DNA from: Candidatus Heimdallarchaeota archaeon
GTDB lineage: Archaea; Asgardarchaeota; Heimdallarchaeia; Heimdallarchaeales; Kariarchaeaceae
Reading direction: 5' to 3'
NCBI GenBank assembly: GCA_015523565.1
Contig: WAKA01000067.1
Span: forward strand, 1 to 12,074
Length of the DNA: 12,074 bases
In this document: piece by piece, positions 2,212 to 11,995 of the stretch
Position numbering within the stretch: the stretch's first letter is position 1
Layout: each line of letters begins with the position of its first letter
Notes under the pieces: model-generated
Told to the model about the DNA's origin: nothing
The model's database searches: none
The model's input: only the letters and a program-made list of their open reading frames with translations
Program-made: the position numbers and the translations under genes

Positions 2212-2460
2212 CTAAAGAAGTTGAATTAAACCATTCTTTTCCCTATTGTTGAATGTAGAAAACGGACATTTCCTATTGCATGATCTAGTGCAATTGACGT
2301 TGCAATCTTTTGTTTCCTGAAACTTGATGATCTCTTGTTCACGAAGCACTTCAAGTATCTCCTTCAATTGGTTTTTACTTATCTCTAACTTTCTAGAAAG
2401 ATGGTTAATTGATATGACCTTGTTTTTTTGAATTTCATGGTAAATTAACGAGAGTCTCAT
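2212..2460 (-). CDS. feoC: FeoC-like winged-helix protein with C-terminal Cys cluster
   Basis: HTH-like ISINHLSRKLEISKNQLKEILEVLREQEII followed by CNVNCTRSCNRKCP; ATGA overlap with the feoB stop (2457-2460). Confidence 0.7.
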   Translation of the reverse strand: MRLSLIYHEIQKNKVISINHLSRKLEISKNQLKEILEVLREQEIIKFQETKDCNVNCTRSCNRKCPFSTFNNREKNGLIQLL

Positions 2461-4301
2461 AATAATATCCCCGCGTAAAAAATGAAAATTGAGACAAGAT
2501 AGGCTATTAGCAAACTATAAAGTACTGAAGCCAATGCCACCTTCTTTCCGAATTCCCGTTTCATTGCAAAAACAGTTCCAAGACATGGAACATACAAGAG
2601 GACAAATACCAACAAGGAAAGTAAGGATATCGGTGAATAAAACATTTGAATTCCGTTAATTAAGTTAGATGAGCCATACATCATTCCCAATATGCCAACC
2701 ACCAATTCTTTTGCGACGAATCCAAAAATAAGTGCGACCACAATCCGTTCATCCCATCCCATTGGCTTGAACATTGGTTCAAATAGTGTCCCCACCATAA
2801 ACGTAAATGATTTCTCAAAATATTCTTGGTTCTCAAACGCTTGTCTTCCAATATAACCTGTGGGTCCAAATACTGTCATCATCCATACAAGGATGATACC
2901 AATCCCCATCCCTTTTCCAACGCCTGTAATAAAATCAAGCAACTGGTTGTACACTGTTTTCAATATGTTCCAAATTGGTGGCTTTTGTAAATCTGGGAGT
3001 TCCATGATTGTTGCTGTATTTTGTTCCCTATAGACGAAAGTTCTCAACAACCATATTGTAACTATTGCCACAATTATTCCCAAGAAATACGCCATTGTCA
3101 CTATCAATTCTGCATATTTTTCTGAGATGACACTTGCAAGGATTATAAGGACGGGAAATCTGGCACTGCATGACATGAAAGGTATGGTCAGAGCCACAAC
3201 TTTCCTTTCAGTTGGATCATCAACTGTTCTAGTACTAAGTATTGCGGGAACATTGCACCCAAATCCTAAGAGCATAGGGGCTATTGATTTGCCTGTAATG
3301 CCAACCTTTGCCAAAAATTTCTCCATAATGAATACTACTCGTGTCAAATACCCTGACTGTTCCATTATCCCTATAAGCAAAAACAAAATGGCAAGTTGGG
3401 GAATAAAAACAAGAACAAATCCAATGCCTGCAATAATTCCGTCCGCCAAAAATGAGACAAGTATTCCCTCTGGCATTTTATTGAGAACCAATTCCTGCAG
3501 TTGAGCAATCCCTTCTCCTAATAATCCTGAAACAAATCCACCTACTGTGAACGTCAACTTAAATGAGAAGAACATGACGAAGACAAATAAAATAAGCCCT
3601 GTCAACGGATGTAACATGAAACGATCCAATTTCTCATATTTTGACTGATCTAAGTCTATTTTTTCATCGTCATATGGAAGGATTGACTCTATCGTTTCAT
3701 ATGTCTTGTCAATAAATCTAATTCTTTCGTCTTCACTGATATCTTCTAGATCCAATTTTGGAATTTCTTGATTTGAATTGCTGGGTGGCGTGAAACCTTC
3801 AATAGTTCCAATTAACTTGTCAATTCCTTGACCTGTAAACGCAGAAATTCGCACTACTGGAATCCCTAGTTTTCTAGAAATTGGTTCAAGATTTGTCTGT
3901 TGTTTTTTCTTATCTGAAAAATTCAATACCAAAATGATGTTCTTTGTTATCTGAAGAAGTTGAAGTGTAAGAAAAAGGCTTCGTCTCAATCGGGTGATAT
4001 CTACTACATTCAAATAAAGACATTCTGGATTTTCTCTGACAAAATCACGAGTCACTTTTGCATCCAATGTCTCTGAAAATAAACTATATATTCCAGGTAA
4101 GTCCATTATTTCTTTTTCTAGTCTTGCAATCTTCCCTTTTTTTGCCTGTACAGTAACTCCTGGAAAATTTGCAACTTTTTGGTTTAACCCAGTCAATCTG
4201 TTGAAAAGCAGACTTTTGCCGCTATTCGGATTCCCGATTAATGCAATCATGTTCTTGGATAATGTTAAACCTTCGTGTTCCAGTGTACAGCAGTTTTTCA
4301 T
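2457..4301 (-). CDS. feoB: Ferrous iron transporter B
   Basis: G1 GNPNSGKS, G2 NFPGVTV, G3 DLPGIYS, G4 NFSD, G5 ISA; membrane gate motifs GFGCNVPA, PFMSCSAR, MELP and LYVPC. Confidence 0.97.
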   Translation of the reverse strand: MKNCCTLEHEGLTLSKNMIALIGNPNSGKSLLFNRLTGLNQKVANFPGVTVQAKKGKIARLEKEIMDLPGIYSLFSETLDAKVTRDFVRENPECLYLNVVDITRLRRSLFLTLQLLQITKNIILVLNFSDKKKQQTNLEPISRKLGIPVVRISAFTGQGIDKLIGTIEGFTPPSNSNQEIPKLDLEDISEDERIRFIDKTYETIESILPYDDEKIDLDQSKYEKLDRFMLHPLTGLILFVFVMFFSFKLTFTVGGFVSGLLGEGIAQLQELVLNKMPEGILVSFLADGIIAGIGFVLVFIPQLAILFLLIGIMEQSGYLTRVVFIMEKFLAKVGITGKSIAPMLLGFGCNVPAILSTRTVDDPTERKVVALTIPFMSCSARFPVLIILASVISEKYAELIVTMAYFLGIIVAIVTIWLLRTFVYREQNTATIMELPDLQKPPIWNILKTVYNQLLDFITGVGKGMGIGIILVWMMTVFGPTGYIGRQAFENQEYFEKSFTFMVGTLFEPMFKPMGWDERIVVALIFGFVAKELVVGILGMMYGSSNLINGIQMFYSPISLLSLLVFVLLYVPCLGTVFAMKREFGKKVALASVLYSLLIAYLVSIFIFYAGILL

Positions 4302-4534
4302 TGTGTTGCCTCAACTACCTTTATTTTTTTGGCAATGCTTGCAGAGAGGATAAATGATCCATCTTTTCCTTTTGCACATACTGGACCGTTTCTTATTGCT
4401 TGTATCACAAAAATTTTTCTTCCCTTATCAAATCCAATCTCTTTGAGCTTGACCAATTCATGTAATGGCACATCCATATTCTCAATTATATAAGGGATTC
4501 CCTTTTTTGCTTCTGATAGGCTAGAGTTTTGCAT
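4298..4534 (-). CDS. feoA: Ferrous iron transport protein A
   Basis: KLKEIGFDKG...GPV...FILSASIAKKIKV SH3-like FeoA pattern; ATGA overlap with the feoB start. ATG 4534 is preferred over TTG 4549. Confidence 0.9.
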   Translation of the reverse strand: MQNSSLSEAKKGIPYIIENMDVPLHELVKLKEIGFDKGRKIFVIQAIRNGPVCAKGKDGSFILSASIAKKIKVVEATQ

Positions 4535-4550
4535 TGACCTTTCAAGCAAA

Positions 4551-5553: not shown

Positions 5554-6234
5554 ATGCAATCCCCCATTGATATTCAACCTTCAACCCTTTCAGAATTTTC
5601 TGATTCATATGATTTGCGTTTCAAGTATCATCTTGCTCCATTAAACCTTGAGAATGATGGCTATACAATTATTAATCACTGTCCCCAAACTGGTTCAGTA
5701 ATTTTTGGTGATGAAGAGTATTTTCTTGAACAATTTCATTTTCATAGTCCGAGTGAGCACAAGATCAATGGCTTCCAATTTCCTTTTGAGATGCATTTTG
5801 TTCATAAGTCTACAGACGGTTATTTTTTGGTTATTGCCGCATTGTTCGGGATAAAATATCCATCCATGCTTTTAACCCAATTTTGGGATAATCTTCCTCC
5901 AATCTCCAAAAGCTTCAAATCAGAAAGAAAATTGGTTTTGACAACCTCTCTCACAAGAGTGGAGGGGTATTTCCATTATATGGGCTCCTTGACGACCCCT
6001 CCTTATACTGAAGGTGTCAATTGGATAATTTTGGATACAATTTTCACACTTTCTGATAATCAACTCCAAAATTATAGAAACATATTCGGGAAACCGACAA
6101 ATAGAGAGATTCAGCCTGCAAAACCAAAAAGTGTTGTTCATTTTGGTGATCGCGGTGATCTTTCTCGCCTATTAAATATCGGTGATATTATAGAAAAGAA
6201 ACCATTGGATACTCTTTATTCCATTCTATACTAA
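5554..6234 (+). CDS. Alpha-class carbonic anhydrase, no signal peptide
   Basis: QSPIDI, QFHFH, SEH, EMHFVH, YMGSLTTPPYTEGVNW and NREIQP; three Zn-binding His (H62, H64, H81) are intact; GAGGT at 5542-5546 precedes the start. Confidence 0.93.
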   Translation: MQSPIDIQPSTLSEFSDSYDLRFKYHLAPLNLENDGYTIINHCPQTGSVIFGDEEYFLEQFHFHSPSEHKINGFQFPFEMHFVHKSTDGYFLVIAALFGIKYPSMLLTQFWDNLPPISKSFKSERKLVLTTSLTRVEGYFHYMGSLTTPPYTEGVNWIILDTIFTLSDNQLQNYRNIFGKPTNREIQPAKPKSVVHFGDRGDLSRLLNIGDIIEKKPLDTLYSILY

Positions 6235-9062
6235 GGATTTTCCTTCCATGATGCAATATATGTTGGACACCTGCAAACACTACAGAGCACAAATTGGTCT
6301 TTTGATGGGGTTGCATCCGAAAGGGAATTGCCACAATTGACACAGGCAAAATAAAAATCTGGAAAAGTAACTGATGCTTGCTGATCCATTTGTATGAATT
6401 TCTCAATTACTTTTTCAAGAAGTTTATCTGCGACTGTCCTATCAACAGTGTCGATAGTGAGTTTTGCAATCATGAATGTGTCTGTCTTTATGTCCGAGTA
6501 TTCTGTAAGTATTGCTTTATTGTCAAAATTACCTCCCCACACTGTAGTCTCTATATTGTAGCCATCGAATTCCTGTTTTGAATTGAAGACAACGGGGACT
6601 TCTTTAAGAACTTCCTTTAATATGCCTGATGCATCATTTTCTGTATAATAGTTAATTGTAGCTGTTGTAGAGTGAATCCGTTTTGATTTCGCTTCAATCT
6701 TGAACTCGTCAACTAAGTTATCTGCACTTAATTGCCTCTTATTGATTGCCAAATTTGTTGCCGCAAGCTCATCAAGTTTTTGCATGTATTGTGAAATTGA
6801 TTTCTCTAATTTTCCGAAGTCATATTCCACAACATTCTCAAAGTATTCTTCATCATAAGCTCCTTTTACCACTCCCTTTTCTAGGCACATGTCAAAGAAA
6901 CGGGGCAAATCTTCCAATTCTAGGTTGATTTGAGAAGCTATTTTATCAATCTTGATTTTTGTCTGGTTTTTGACTAATTTCAAAAACTTTTCAACTCTCA
7001 TGATCATGGATTTTGCTATTTCATGTTCCTTACTATAAATGATGTAGCATGGAATGCCTTGGTCTGTTTCCAGTTCTGCTATTATCTCTCTAACCATGTT
7101 TATGTTATCTTGGGTTATGGGTATCTCAAAGTTCTCGAGAACGTCTTTAAGCAAATGGTCATTGCCTTTTGAAGCCTCATCAAGCAACCATGAAATGATT
7201 CTTGAAAACAAATGAGATTTCTCATAGATACCTTCATAGGTTACAACAATGTTTTTGCCTTGAATATGGTCGACAAGGAAGTTTCCAAGTTCTTCTCTGC
7301 GTCGTTTACTCAATTTCGCCCTTCTTTTCAGCAATGCCATGAAATCTTCATAGTTTACTTTCTTTTGTTTTTGAAATATGTTCAATGTTTCCATAATTGT
7401 GTCTTCTGTGAAATACAACAAAAGTTCCAATCCCTGAAAAACAAAAACACCGGATTCATAACTCAAATCAATAAATATTTCCTTAATCGCTGATTCAGGC
7501 ACATTATATCTTGTTTCAAATTCATTTTGGGAATAAATTCCTGGTCTCTTTGTAATTGTGTCATATATTTTCCTTCTAAGATAGGACGGTTTCATAAAAA
7601 TCTCTTGATCTTTTGTAAGAATATGCCCCCGGCTGACCAAATAACTGGCAATAGATGTCAATTCCACATCTGGAAGGAATTTCTTGAACTCGTTGAGTTT
7701 ACCCTTGTTTTTTCTGTCAAAATGTTTCTTATAGACTGGATAAATTAAATCAAAATCTCCAGTCTTTCCTTTTGCAATGCTGAATTGATCACTTCCACAA
7801 TTGGGACACAGTTGTTTTTCTCCCTTTTTGAATAGCATTTCTGTCCCACAATTTTCGCAAATCATATTGATGACACTGATTTCTGAGGTTTCCGCTAAAG
7901 ACAGTTCACTTATTTGGTCAATATGTGCCAAGGGGATTGTTTCAACAAATTTCGGATTGAGTGTGATACTTGCCTCTTCATCTTTTTCAATATTCATCAT
8001 GGCCCTGAATAAGTCAAGCACTTTGTTAACTGCCTTATCGTTTTTCAATGTCTCTGATGAATTAATCAGGTTCTCAAACTTCTGAAGAATGTCTGAATGC
8101 CGAATTTCAGATCTTTCAAGCCGGTTTGCAGATGTTTCAAATAATTCGTCCTTATTTATCCCATCTACCACTTCCTGCTGAAATAATATCTTTGTTGGTC
8201 GTTTTAATGACTGTTCATACAGATGATGAATTAGTAAATTATGTGCCAACTGTCTGAACCCTGCCCTCCAATTCCAGCTTAATATCCTTGCACCTGTTTT
8301 CATTTCAAACAGGTCATTGTTGTCCACATAGTCATAAATATCACAGACTTTACTTTTGTACTTTTCACAAAACGCAGGATGCTTTACAATTGTACATTTA
8401 AGACAGGTATCTGTGAAAACTCTTACCTTAAATTTATTTTTCAACCTCGATGGAATCTTAATGATTCCGTATTTTACCACAAGATTTGGTTCCAATATGG
8501 TGACATTTTCATCAATCAAGACATCTCCATAAATCAGGCTTCCATACATTGTCACATTTTTCAAGGCTGCTTTCCCTCTTTCATCTTTTGAAATCCCTGC
8601 CCTTACTTTTCCTCCGACCAATAGCATGTCTTTGGGACTAATGTTGAGTTTTGAAATGCCATAGATGTCCCCTCGTACGATCATATATCCACATTTAATT
8701 TCAACAGCTTCCCCAATAATATTACCAACAACGATTATTGCCCCTCCCTTATCTCCTGAAATAGTTATTTTCCCTTCTGAAGTTATGTCCCCTAATATTA
8801 CTGTTGGGTTTTCTTGGGTGCCTGAGTAAATTTCAATGGATTTCAATGAATACATATTGCCATTTACAAAACACCCTGATCCACACGTGATTTTGGAATT
8901 GGCGAACATATCGTTTCCCACTTTAGCATTGGCACCAACCTCTATTACATTAAAATTCACAATAGGGAAAATTCCCTTATACGTTTTATCCAATGAGATA
9001 TTCCCTTTAACCTCATCAACATGGGCTCCAGATTCGTTGTGCAGTTTTTCCTTGCTAAGCAT
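6231..9062 (-). CDS. Large multidomain protein: bactofilin-like beta-helix, Cys4 modules, tandem winged-helix/PCI-like region, C-terminal Zn ribbon
   Basis: Long ORF (946 aa from 9071; GGAGG at 9072-9076 favours ATG 9062). Repeating hxGxh...hxh units at aa ~40-205; Cys clusters C223-C243, C405-C425 and C910-C933; PCI-like segment at aa ~690-748. Residue numbers follow the 946-aa ORF. Domain calls are by eye. Confidence 0.7.
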   Translation of the reverse strand: MLSKEKLHNESGAHVDEVKGNISLDKTYKGIFPIVNFNVIEVGANAKVGNDMFANSKITCGSGCFVNGNMYSLKSIEIYSGTQENPTVILGDITSEGKITISGDKGGAIIVVGNIIGEAVEIKCGYMIVRGDIYGISKLNISPKDMLLVGGKVRAGISKDERGKAALKNVTMYGSLIYGDVLIDENVTILEPNLVVKYGIIKIPSRLKNKFKVRVFTDTCLKCTIVKHPAFCEKYKSKVCDIYDYVDNNDLFEMKTGARILSWNWRAGFRQLAHNLLIHHLYEQSLKRPTKILFQQEVVDGINKDELFETSANRLERSEIRHSDILQKFENLINSSETLKNDKAVNKVLDLFRAMMNIEKDEEASITLNPKFVETIPLAHIDQISELSLAETSEISVINMICENCGTEMLFKKGEKQLCPNCGSDQFSIAKGKTGDFDLIYPVYKKHFDRKNKGKLNEFKKFLPDVELTSIASYLVSRGHILTKDQEIFMKPSYLRRKIYDTITKRPGIYSQNEFETRYNVPESAIKEIFIDLSYESGVFVFQGLELLLYFTEDTIMETLNIFQKQKKVNYEDFMALLKRRAKLSKRRREELGNFLVDHIQGKNIVVTYEGIYEKSHLFSRIISWLLDEASKGNDHLLKDVLENFEIPITQDNINMVREIIAELETDQGIPCYIIYSKEHEIAKSMIMRVEKFLKLVKNQTKIKIDKIASQINLELEDLPRFFDMCLEKGVVKGAYDEEYFENVVEYDFGKLEKSISQYMQKLDELAATNLAINKRQLSADNLVDEFKIEAKSKRIHSTTATINYYTENDASGILKEVLKEVPVVFNSKQEFDGYNIETTVWGGNFDNKAILTEYSDIKTDTFMIAKLTIDTVDRTVADKLLEKVIEKFIQMDQQASVTFPDFYFACVNCGNSLSDATPSKDQFVLCSVCRCPTYIASWKENP

Positions 9063-10059
9063 TGAAACCATCCTCCAGATAGAATTTCTTGATTGCTGTC
9101 TTTCTTATCTTGTCTTTTTCAAGCATTGCAATCTCTTCTGCCAGTTTTTCATTTTCACTAGAAACCATGATATCATTTATCCTAATGAATTGCTGTATCT
9201 TTGGATCGTGAATATCTTTTACAATGGTGCTTGTTCGTTCCGCCAATGGCATGAGATTATTGATTTTTTCTGCCCTGCTTGGCAGGGTGTTTGTATCTGC
9301 AATTCCTAAGAAATTTAGCGTTTCAACCTCAAAAAGATTTACCTGTGGCGGAGATTTATAGTGTTTTTCTGCACCGTCAACCTTTTCATAGACAACAACA
9401 GGCACAGGCACTGTCAATATGAAAATATCTCCTTCCTTCAATTCCTGTGAAACTGGTAGCATTTGGTTGACATATAGGTCTTCAATTTTCTTGTAAAGCC
9501 TCTTGCGTTCATCTACAAAAGCTGACAGGTTTTCAGATCCCACCTTCAATATTTCTGTTGACTTTTCTGATCTAAACGAAAAGAGTGTTCTTGTTTCTTG
9601 AATTAACTCCCTTTCATCGTCTTGTGGATCTATTCTTTCAATGAAATCTTTTACCCTGTCCCTTCTTTTAATGATCCCTTTTAGTGATTCAAGTTCTGCA
9701 TGTATCATGTTCCCAAATTGTTTGATAGAATCCAATATTCCCTTGACAAAATCCCTTAGGATATCTGTTTTTGCACTTACCAATTTCAGTTCTGTTTCTC
9801 TCAGAACCTTGCTTTCTATTGCGGCAATTTCTTCAGCCTCAAGGAGGTCTGCCTCTGCATTGATGACACTCAATGCCTTTTGCACTTTTGTCTGTATTTC
9901 CACCGATTCATTTATTGTTCTCAGTCTTCTATCCAAGTTTTTCTCCATCTGCTCAATTGTTTTCTCAAGACCTTGAACCGCACGTTCCACTGCTTTTGTT
10001 GCGTTTTTTACATCTTTTGTGGCTTGAACCACATCTCTTATTGCACGCACTTCACTCAT
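9055..10059 (-). CDS. Uncharacterised coiled-coil protein
   Basis: 334-aa ORF with GGAGG at 10067-10071; heptad-rich helical N-terminal ~200 aa; stop overlaps the start of the next gene. Confidence 0.8.
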   Translation of the reverse strand: MSEVRAIRDVVQATKDVKNATKAVERAVQGLEKTIEQMEKNLDRRLRTINESVEIQTKVQKALSVINAEADLLEAEEIAAIESKVLRETELKLVSAKTDILRDFVKGILDSIKQFGNMIHAELESLKGIIKRRDRVKDFIERIDPQDDERELIQETRTLFSFRSEKSTEILKVGSENLSAFVDERKRLYKKIEDLYVNQMLPVSQELKEGDIFILTVPVPVVVYEKVDGAEKHYKSPPQVNLFEVETLNFLGIADTNTLPSRAEKINNLMPLAERTSTIVKDIHDPKIQQFIRINDIMVSSENEKLAEEIAMLEKDKIRKTAIKKFYLEDGFNA

Positions 10060-10071
10060 TTTTCAGCCTCC

Positions 10072-11706
10072 TCATAAGCTTTTCATCTCCCTAAGCTTCC
10101 TTTTCTCCTTTTCCAGCTTGGCATATGCTGAAACATATTGGCGTTTTGCATTGATCAGGGCCGTTTCCAACGGTGAAATTGAAGATTCCCGTTGTTGTTT
10201 TGTCGTCTTGAATGAATTGACATTTCTCACTATTACGTCTGATTTCTGTTCTATTTTTTGCAGATTCTCGAAAAACACTGTATTGTATGTAATTCCCAAC
10301 GGAAGCATTGAACGCGGCAATCCGATAGCCTCAGTTGTATTGCTGCATTTTTTGCAAACAAATTTGTCCCCTTTCTTCTTCATTCTTGGTAACTGGTCTT
10401 TTAATTGGACATAAACGTATTCTACTGGCAAGTCATGGATCAACGAGTTGACTGCCTCCTGAATTCTTGTCCGTTCTTGTGGAAATGCGTTGTATTTTTC
10501 TTTTATGTCATCAGACGTATTGGAATCATATGTGGTCATAAAAATTGGATCATCAATTACTCCCAATAAAATACGCTCTTTTACCCACTGCCTCAAATCC
10601 AAATCTATTTTCAGCGATTCAATTTTGTCACGGTATTCCTTTGTTTCCATGCATGGTTTACAGAAAAATATGTTATTGAATTCGAGATATGTCATCCTAT
10701 TACTGGGGATGGTTAACTGTATCAGTTTTGAAATTCCCTCTAGAATATCATTCAAATTCTCTCCTGTTGTTGACACTATGTCTGAAACGATATCCGCAAA
10801 CTCAACAATATCCTGGCCCAGTACCTCTTCTTGCCATGAATCCAAACCTTCCACCCAATTTGTGATTTGACTTGGTGAAACTGCAAAATTTAAGCTATGT
10901 TGCTGCGAAAACGCGTCCAAGTCATTTTCCAATAATTTTTGTTCATGAAAGGAAATGTTTTCCTTATTGGAAATTAAACTAATTATATTTTCCACAATTG
11001 GAGAAACCCCTGTGATTGTAGGGACATTCAACCTATACCTTTTAAGATTTTTTTCTCCTGTTGCGTATATGAATGGATTTGCATCCACCTCGATTGGCTT
11101 TTCAATCAACTTTTCCTTGAAAATAGATCGGGAATACTGTGTTTGGTGGATGTTCCGGATTTGTTCTGAAGAATTGCTTGTTATCAGTCTTTCATAAGTG
11201 TTCACAGCGTTACCTAACCTTTTCAGGGAATTGAGCAGTGCATTATTGTCCACATAGCTGGGAAAGATGAACTCTTCCGTTTCCGATGCATTTCCATCAA
11301 TGAAAATTAACCCTCTTTTCATTTGCTTTACCAAAAATGGATAGTTAATGGTAGTTAATGTTGTAATTTTTCTCAACGGAAGAAGTGATGATTTCTTTTT
11401 ATGATAATATCCAAAAAAGGCAAGCGCAAATGCAATTCCTGTTAATGCAATCCATATCCAATAGTCAACTGCCCTTTCCAGCAATATTCCTACTAATAGC
11501 AATAAAATTCCAATTCCTACAGTTTGGAATTGTTTTTTTCTTAATTCTCTGTATCTCTCATAATATTCCTTGTTTGCCTTTTCAAGCGCATATCCATAGA
11601 GGTATTTTTTGCTTTCATGTTCGTTCAAGGCAACATAACTTCCTCCATGTATCTCATAAACTGCACTTTTCAACTGGATAAAGCCATCTATGTCGTTTTG
11701 TCCCAC
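10072..11706 (-). CDS. Uncharacterised 2-TM membrane protein with split CxxC...CxxC and C-terminal coiled coil
   Basis: 544-aa ORF with GTG start and GGAGG at 11714-11718; hydrophobic hairpin at aa ~63-101 flanked by basic residues; CKPC (349-352) and CKKC (451-454). Confidence 0.8.
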   Translation of the reverse strand: MGQNDIDGFIQLKSAVYEIHGGSYVALNEHESKKYLYGYALEKANKEYYERYRELRKKQFQTVGIGILLLLVGILLERAVDYWIWIALTGIAFALAFFGYYHKKKSSLLPLRKITTLTTINYPFLVKQMKRGLIFIDGNASETEEFIFPSYVDNNALLNSLKRLGNAVNTYERLITSNSSEQIRNIHQTQYSRSIFKEKLIEKPIEVDANPFIYATGEKNLKRYRLNVPTITGVSPIVENIISLISNKENISFHEQKLLENDLDAFSQQHSLNFAVSPSQITNWVEGLDSWQEEVLGQDIVEFADIVSDIVSTTGENLNDILEGISKLIQLTIPSNRMTYLEFNNIFFCKPCMETKEYRDKIESLKIDLDLRQWVKERILLGVIDDPIFMTTYDSNTSDDIKEKYNAFPQERTRIQEAVNSLIHDLPVEYVYVQLKDQLPRMKKKGDKFVCKKCSNTTEAIGLPRSMLPLGITYNTVFFENLQKIEQKSDVIVRNVNSFKTTKQQRESSISPLETALINAKRQYVSAYAKLEKEKRKLREMKSL

Positions 11707-11707
11707 C

Positions 11708-11965
11708 TCATCCCCTCCTAACTATTTTTTGGTTTCCAAGAGTGTAAATCCTGAACAATCTACTGTCTCGTTCCATCAATCTGTCTATCACTTGAGAAAC
11801 TTCCACAATGTCAAGACCATGATCTCTTGCAAATTTCCGCAAATCGATATACCCAAACTCTTCCAATACTCTTTTCATCTGGTGATCCCAGTCTTTCTCA
11901 TTTTCAAAAATTTCTTGCATTATTTCCTGAACTTCTTGAATTGTCTTGTCCTCTTGTAAAACCAT
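11708..11965 (-). CDS. Small winged-helix-like protein
   Basis: GYIDLRKFARDHGLDIVEVSQVIDRLMERD fits a strand-helix-turn-helix-wing pattern; stop lies 1 nt before the next GTG start. Confidence 0.65.
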   Translation of the reverse strand: MVLQEDKTIQEVQEIMQEIFENEKDWDHQMKRVLEEFGYIDLRKFARDHGLDIVEVSQVIDRLMERDSRLFRIYTLGNQKIVRRG

Positions 11966-11987
11966 GTGAAAAACATGAAATAGTTTT

Positions 11988-11995
11988 TATTTAAA
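11988..11995 (-). promoter_or_regulatory. Putative archaeal TATA box (TTTAAATA) for the four-gene operon
   Basis: Lies 23-30 nt upstream of ATG 11965 with no Shine-Dalgarno site in between, consistent with a leaderless first gene. The region is AT-rich, so a chance match is possible. Confidence 0.5.

Follow-up and report, generated by a model that had tools for sequence, protein, structure and literature searches.

What kind of system is specified by four tightly packed genes of an Asgard archaeon that had been taken together, from the DNA letters alone, for a membrane-anchored, bactofilin-like scaffold? The genes lie on a stretch of 12,074 bp, called the window below, which represents one whole contig (WAKA01000067.1, about 35-39% guanine plus cytosine (GC)) of the 3.57-Mb, 90%-complete metagenome-assembled genome (MAG) of Candidatus Heimdallarchaeota archaeon (GCA_015523565.1). 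The four open reading frames (ORFs) are co-oriented on the minus strand and occupy 11965-6231, as evidenced in the ORF list and in reading of the sequence. Gene 1 (11708-11965) encodes P0001 of 85 amino acid (aa) residues. Comparison with homologues placed the products of the other three in separate families: gene 2 (10072-11706, GTG start; P0002, 544 aa) in family A, a transmembrane (TM) hairpin protein with an invariant set of four cysteines (Cys4), gene 3 (9055-10059; P0003, 334 aa) in family B, a heptad-rich helical protein, and gene 4 (6231-9062; P0004, 943 aa) in family C, of which the N-terminal domain contains a beta-helix, a Cys4 cap and a WR motif and is followed by a lineage-specific tail. 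Sequence comparison suggested that genes 2-4 constitute a previously undescribed, conserved but rare archaeal gene trio, A-B-C; no description of such a trio was found in the literature alongside the subjects of bactofilin, Asgard, zinc ribbon or operon.

The order A-B-C is kept in 15 loci, wherever the DNA was readable, at GC contents from 30 to 58%. Twelve of these loci were obtained by BLAST, and profile hidden Markov models added three more distant ones (L038, L044 and L045). Of the other 14 loci, all but L037 and L011, where the contigs are too short upstream, have a family A homologue, and 13 other loci have one of family B. Short gaps separate the genes; in seven loci B overlaps C, by either 4 or 8 nucleotides (nt), and the overlap of the two genes in most loci suggests that B is made in step with C. 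Pairwise-identity matrices of A, B and C resolved identical four subclusters in all three families, indicating that the three genes travel as a unit. The original prediction had named a lack of co-occurrence elsewhere as a point against one joint system; the three large genes were instead found together, in the same order, in other genomes. Conservation as a unit holds for genes 2-4 over the 15 loci, and fails for gene 1 and for the tail of gene 4.

The loci span at least two archaeal phyla. The trio hosts include three Heimdallarchaeia, three genomes of one Asgard family, one of them a Candidatus Thorarchaeota, a member of a further Asgard family (G132), and an 'uncultured archaeon' of a different phylum, in which the C domain was found in 2 of 301 sampled genomes. 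One homologous locus lies in CP084167.1 of Candidatus Heimdallarchaeum endolithica PR6, which shares the taxonomic order of the window genome and belongs to a different family. A profile search gave a complete C domain in 7 of 400 Asgard genomes, and family A was found in the same seven and in one more, on a contig that breaks off 427 nt past A; as the sampled genomes are species representatives, mostly incomplete MAGs, 'not found' among them does not equal absent.

The conserved domain of C covers aa 1-290 of P0004 (8193-9062, minus strand) and, according to alignment A1 and to the AlphaFold2 (AF2) model built on it, would comprise a right-handed beta-helix, a Cys4 cap and a helix carrying the invariant W265 and R266. 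An exhaustive phmmer search found 23 relatives of P0004 among 1.84 billion representative proteins, of which P0005 (972 aa, 30% identity) is the only full-length one and the rest share roughly the first 290 aa. Word-indexed homologue searches with P0004, A1 and the family A alignment A2 returned only the query's own entry or one already-known protein. The residues invariant in A1, which holds 17 N-domains, are a glycine ladder, C220, C223, C232 and C240 (8343-8405, minus strand), D250 and the W265-R266 pair; the four cysteines are putative zinc ligands. The AF2 model (pLDDT, the predicted score in the local distance difference test, 90.5, predicted template modelling score (pTM) 0.90) displays strands from aa 13 to 197, forming a beta-helix of ~190 aa, then a small mixed subdomain bearing the cysteines and finally a long helix. 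No conserved N-terminal motif precedes the first rung in A1; residues 2-8 form a short helix in the model.

Structural comparison in VIA-align matched the C model to right-handed beta-helix proteins with Z scores of 10-15 and a root mean square deviation (rmsd) of 2.7-3.9; solved bactofilin chains were not among the Protein Data Bank (PDB) matches listed, which excludes nothing. An assignment of C to LpxA/hexapeptide acyltransferases was rejected, as left-handed helices could be aligned no better than at rmsd 11-12. Foldseek of the model against the PDB gave no match at E up to 0.001. In the ESM Atlas the model matched a 142-aa archaeal cluster annotated as bactofilin, with a TM-score of 0.84 (by target) and an rmsd of 2.2 across 140 aa. 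At the sequence level, P0004 gave no match to Pfam Bactofilin (PF04519) in a whole-genome scan at E 0.01, and 10 of the 17 C-family members have a PF04519 match with E no higher than 1, the best at 1.3e-6. The A1 profile also matches other Asgard proteins of 220-400 aa at E 3e-12 to 1e-7, and those proteins pass the PF04519 cut-off with 33-64 bits. Taken together, these profile matches and the model show that the C beta-helix is a remote bactofilin homologue, a distinct, longer and Cys4-capped branch missed by Pfam, and the bactofilin-like beta-helix originally proposed for gene 4 is borne out in this form.

Ordinary bactofilin genes recognised by Pfam are present elsewhere in the window genome, at G000:C185:16519-16911 (38.9 bits combined) and, more weakly, at G000:C161:17699-18106, indicating that the Cys4-capped C is an addition and not the sole bactofilin of this archaeon. 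Four partial matches to the C-domain profile were observed in G570 (L050-L053), a genome of the second archaeal phylum, where one ORF matches only the Cys4/WR subdomain (profile positions 181-298) and another only the beta-helix. The two parts of the C domain may also occur separately.

Protein A is the probable membrane anchor of the trio. P0002 has a single hydrophobic stretch, aa 58-101 (11404-11535, minus strand), which was assigned as a TM hairpin from hydropathy and flank charges and which appears as two helices (46-76 and 83-106) in the AF2 model. Both flanks of the hairpin are rich in Lys and Arg, so that both termini of P0002 are predicted to be cytoplasmic by the positive-inside rule. 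The earlier claim that one of the proteins, the product of gene 2, serves as a membrane anchor is supported by this hairpin. P0002 contains four cysteines in all, arranged as CKPC (aa 349-352) and CKKC (aa 451-454) with an insert in between (10345-10662, minus strand); C349, C352, C451 and C454 are invariant across A2 (9 homologues) and would also form a zinc site. The C-terminal tail, aa 472-544, is heptad-rich and predicted to be a long helix. Modelling of protein A with the 9 homologues gave a poor model (pLDDT 60, pTM 0.28). Family A has no match in Pfam, NCBIfam or PADLOC, a PDB sequence search gave nothing below E 0.1, and a search of the ESM Atlas by features with P0002 gave no usable match.

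P0003, the family B member, is free of cysteine and heptad-rich at aa 1-144 and 168-198, and alignment A3 revealed a conserved, proline-flanked and strand-like region with a PxYV motif in the family. Matches of family B in Pfam, NCBIfam and PADLOC were no better than coiled-coil noise, and the PDB sequence search gave nothing below E 0.1; P0003 matched DruC in PADLOC (E 6e-4, 16.4 bits), but this match was seen in only one of ten B-family members. When B (alignment A3) and the C domain (A1) were predicted as a complex, the scores were 0.36, 0.00 and 0.00, which leave binding neither supported nor contradicted.

No enzyme family was detected in the four proteins with Pfam, NCBIfam and PADLOC. 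P0001, P0002 and P0004 have no match in PADLOC-DB 2.0, no defence model was consistent across homologues, and neither a PspA/Snf7 nor a Band_7 domain is among the Pfam matches listed for families A, B and C. The original prediction had seen no catalytic motif by eye and had recognised no described defence or secretion system in these genes; with no such family detected, both statements stand.

The gene 4 product continues beyond the C domain into a tail of ~650 aa, which is common only to P0005 (23% identity) and absent from 13 of the 15 loci; it is a lineage-specific accessory. Two zinc ribbons are conserved between P0004 and P0005, one formed from the CxxC pairs 402/405 and 419/422, the other from 907/910 and 927/930, and several winged-helix-like units are also present. 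The first ribbon, CENC...CPNC at aa 402-422 (7797-7859, minus strand), gave weak Pfam matches to HypA and zinc-ribbon families, and the combined P0004 and P0005 profile matched the zinc-ribbon protein 6htj in the PDB, deposited as nucleic-acid-binding, at E 0.00097. A zinc ribbon after the N-domain is found in many C-family proteins. The second, CVNC...CSVC at aa 907-930 (6273-6344, minus strand), is C-terminal and kept in P0005. A putative PCI-like winged helix lies at aa 691-738 (6849-6992, minus strand); the same combined profile matched the winged helix of DDRGK1 marginally (E 0.0067 with the entire sequence, 0.01 with this stretch alone). P0004 has no match to Pfam PCI (PF01399), and its comparison with PCI-positive neighbours of its relatives in hhalign was weak (E 0.034, probability 1.5%). 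Residues 703-773 gave weak matches to archaeal helix-turn-helix (HTH) regulators (E 0.35-0.73), and aa 430-943 scored only 0.75-0.78 against the ESM Atlas by features. The description of gene 4 as a giant beta-helix, zinc and winged-helix/PCI protein is confirmed for the beta-helix and the CxxC sites and marginally so for the winged helix; the giant C-terminal half is shared with one other MAG only and is not conserved.

Similar modules adjoin the trio elsewhere. In G040 the trio adjoins a gene that passes the Pfam PCI model (22.9 bits against a cut-off of 22), and the winged helix encoded there resembles the trio neighbour of Ca. H. endolithica as well as part of the C protein (937 aa) of G132; overall, a PCI-like winged helix is fused to or adjoins the trio in five loci. 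The gene following C encodes a WD40 propeller in four loci, an nSTAND3 NTPase in one and a zinc-ribbon protein in one. At L045 (4223-7384) the genes after the trio encode, in this order, an SPFH/Band_7 protein bearing several zinc ribbons and a Ser/Thr protein kinase. The WD40, PCI-like and SPFH/Band_7 partner genes encode protein-interaction or membrane-scaffold modules. A TauE/SafE-family exporter gene was also observed no more than a few kb from the trio at three loci (L004, 13080-14024; L034, 4040-4804; L035, 12908-13684), those of Ca. H. endolithica and of two genomes of the Thorarchaeota-containing family. Its relative position differs among them, and the proximity could be chance or a remnant of a shared context.

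Gene 1 differs from the rest of the operon. P0001 has no family match in Pfam, NCBIfam or PADLOC, and no homologue was found in 60 related genomes searched or at the other trio loci. The reading of gene 1 as a winged-helix protein and as part of one joint unit therefore finds no support; the gene is an orphan, a local add-on outside the conserved unit.

The four genes are arranged as one compact operon. Gene 1 and gene 2 are separated by 1 nt, gene 2 and gene 3 by 12 nt, and gene 3 overlaps gene 4 by 8 nt with the ATG at 9062 as the start; an alternative ATG at 9071 would extend the overlap to 17 nt, but without spacing to the GGAGG. GGAGG-type sites precede the three internal starts, namely AGGAGG 7 nt 5' of the gene 2 GTG, GAGGAGG 7 nt 5' of the gene 3 ATG and GGAGG 9 nt 5' of the gene 4 ATG at 9062. 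A TATA-like box, TTTAAATA (11988-11995, minus strand), is a candidate promoter element by its position; its centre lies ~26 nt 5' of the gene 1 ATG, a distance compatible with a leaderless transcript as found in archaea. A separate gene caller gave the identical four products for the same contig in another assembly. All of these features, layout, gaps, overlap, GGAGG sites and TATA-like box, agree with those first read from the sequence.

On the other strand, a gene for an alpha (eukaryotic-type) carbonic anhydrase (5554-6234, plus strand; Pfam Carb_anhydrase, E 2.5e-30, profile positions 18-230 of 254) converges on gene 4, with the stop codons overlapping at 6231-6234. A second minus-strand operon at 2212-4549 contains feoA (4298-4549), feoB (2457-4301) and a gene for an 82-aa winged-helix/TFIIE-alpha-like protein (2212-2460), of which neighbouring stops and starts overlap. 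The window contains no tRNA gene, and tRNA-linked integration was rejected on this ground. In a same-genus genome (L043, G001:C9:68000-81798), homologues of the window's genes for 165-aa, 252-aa, 266-aa and DUF1614 proteins are clustered in a changed order, and feoAB, the carbonic anhydrase gene and the operon are not in this cluster. Between this genome and the window, the flanking genes are reordered and have diverged too far for an insertion site to be defined.

What, then, might the trio do? The explanation that we prefer, with slightly less than an even chance of being correct, is that genes 2-4 specify an enzyme-free assembly anchored to the membrane at its cytoplasmic face, in which C acts as a bactofilin-type scaffold platform. 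Protein A would be held in the membrane via its helical hairpin and would expose a cytoplasmic domain that is stapled by the Cys4 set and has a long helix at its end. B would be a stoichiometric, heptad-rich helical partner produced in step with C, and C a long, divergent bactofilin-type beta-helix closed by its Cys4 cap. On this platform, lineage-specific interaction modules would be carried as fused or co-encoded parts, which in the window may be the two zinc ribbons and the winged-helix units, one of them PCI-like. A, B and C would bind one another, and C would form the scaffold.

Several points weigh against this explanation. Mutual binding of A, B and C is presumed, as is polymerisation of C. 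The sequence of P0004 aa 1-300 scores only 11.5 bits against PF04519 (E 0.36; cut-off 27.9), and even the best C-family member, P0007, stays below the cut-off at 25.8 bits. Canonical end-to-end stacking is uncertain at the Cys4 end of C, since the Cys4 subdomain follows directly after the last rungs. A cryptic catalytic fold may be present in protein A, with its pLDDT of 60, in protein B or in the tail of gene 4. The very rare and patchy distribution sits badly with a core cell-shape cytoskeleton, the module not being found in three genomes of the same genus that are 82-93% complete, and some of the neighbours (the nSTAND3 NTPase and the Ser/Thr kinase) are of signalling or conflict type.

These last observations also favour a rival view, with the trio at the core of an accessory system for sensing or conflict (of defence type); there the variable modules would be exchangeable sensors and A-B-C the responder or effector platform. 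Besides the rarity of the module, which was not found in same-genus genomes, this view is favoured by a genomic neighbourhood that differs at each locus, by the variation of accessory modules among nSTAND3 NTPase, WD40 proteins and Ser/Thr kinase, and by the finding that the closest trio relative of the window lies in a MAG that is not among the sampled close kin, rather than in the same-order Heimdallarchaeum genomes. The gene two positions upstream of the trio in Ca. H. endolithica (2494-4509 of locus L004, from CP084167.1) encodes an Eco57I-like methylase that carries a TaqI_C specificity domain; no other defence-type neighbour was seen in the loci read. However, PADLOC gave only single-member matches of coiled-coil type and none that was consistent, no recognisable effector domain was found, the neighbours are mostly housekeeping genes (feoAB, carbonic anhydrase, sugar epimerase and TauE), and the loci read contain neither integrase nor transposase. 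A sensing or conflict system is the main rival of the scaffold; we consider it possible, on the unlikely side.

The tail of gene 4 raises a further alternative, that the module in the window tethers or organises nucleic acid at the membrane, with the winged helices and zinc ribbons binding DNA or RNA. Bactofilin scaffolds position ParABS components in Myxococcus, which offers an analogy, and the several winged-helix-like units, three Cys4 or zinc-ribbon sites in the tail region, the resemblance of a ribbon to 6htj and the weak HTH regulator matches are consistent with such a role. It is nevertheless quite improbable: the best winged-helix match is DDRGK1, a PCI-like protein-interaction domain and not a DNA-binding family, no ParA, ParB or Orc genes lie nearby, and tethering cannot be the core function given that 13 of the 15 loci do without the tail. 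A purely historical adjacency, without joint action, would account for gene 1 and the gene 4 tail not being conserved with the rest, and joint action of A, B and C is itself presumed. This view is contradicted by synteny and close to refuted: the order is identical in 15 loci across phyla, the subclusters are congruent, starts and stops overlap, and A and C co-occur seven for seven in the 400 genomes.

The scaffold explanation can be taken one step further, to a membrane-bound archaeal polymer system in which a zinc-capped bactofilin sits on a TM receptor via a helical adaptor and recruits eukaryote-style modules such as PCI-like winged helices and WD40 proteins. This extended form is unlikely; if true, an unrecognised membrane polymer would exist in archaea, including Asgard lineages nearest to eukaryotes. 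To our knowledge, no widespread cytoskeletal protein of prokaryotes is less well understood than the bactofilins, and we know of almost nothing on archaeal bactofilins beyond the haloarchaeal halofilins, and of nothing in Asgard archaea, of which the cell architecture bears on the origin of eukaryotes. New here are a compact three-gene unit, two new protein families (A and B) and a Cys4-capped, putatively zinc-binding bactofilin branch, and the unit appears, judged from gene fusion and adjacency, to recruit PCI-like, WD40 and SPFH-type partners. The analysis yields alignments, a confident C-domain model and a concrete set of proteins for expression and imaging. The presence of the module in ~2% of sampled Asgard genomes indicates an accessory system rather than a general feature of Asgard cell biology, and this rarity limits its weight.

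Compared with known systems, C is closest to the canonical bactofilins (PF04519/DUF583), such as BacA of C. crescentus and TtBac of T. thermophilus, with which it shares the right-handed beta-helix, the glycine ladder and the lack of a nucleotide-binding motif. The TtBac study describes non-polar filaments formed by end-to-end stacking of beta-helices and membrane binding via an N-terminal tail (bioRxiv 10.1101/617639). C differs in its helix of ~190 aa, compared to about 100-110 aa, in the added invariant Cys4/WR subdomain and, in the window, the ~650-aa tail, and in scores that fall under the Pfam cut-off. In addition, no conserved membrane-targeting tail was identified in C, and membrane contact would be made via the separate TM protein A.

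The halofilins HalA and HalB of Haloferax volcanii are, like C, archaeal and divergent proteins of bactofilin fold; HalB combines a bactofilin domain with membrane anchoring, and HalA homologues are reported in the Asgard group (PMC11459167). As judged from the same description, HalA has two bactofilin subdomains arranged head to head and a helical hairpin, unlike C, and HalB, a polytopic membrane protein in its own right, has its bactofilin domain outside the cell, whereas the trio has a separate anchor in A. Neither halofilin, as described, has a Cys4 cap or partner genes of families A and B. The winged helix at aa 691-738 of P0004 is marginally similar to that of DDRGK1/UFBP1 and lacks the helical-repeat N-terminal part of PCI proteins (PF01399), and no link to complexes of the lid, CSN or eIF3 type is indicated. 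Bacteria also have modules in which a bactofilin is accompanied by partners, such as yhbDEF of B. subtilis and BacNOP-PadC-ParAB of Myxococcus. The partner families differ from those of the trio, as A and B match nothing curated; the arrangement is nonetheless alike, with a putative bactofilin scaffold encoded beside dedicated adaptors.

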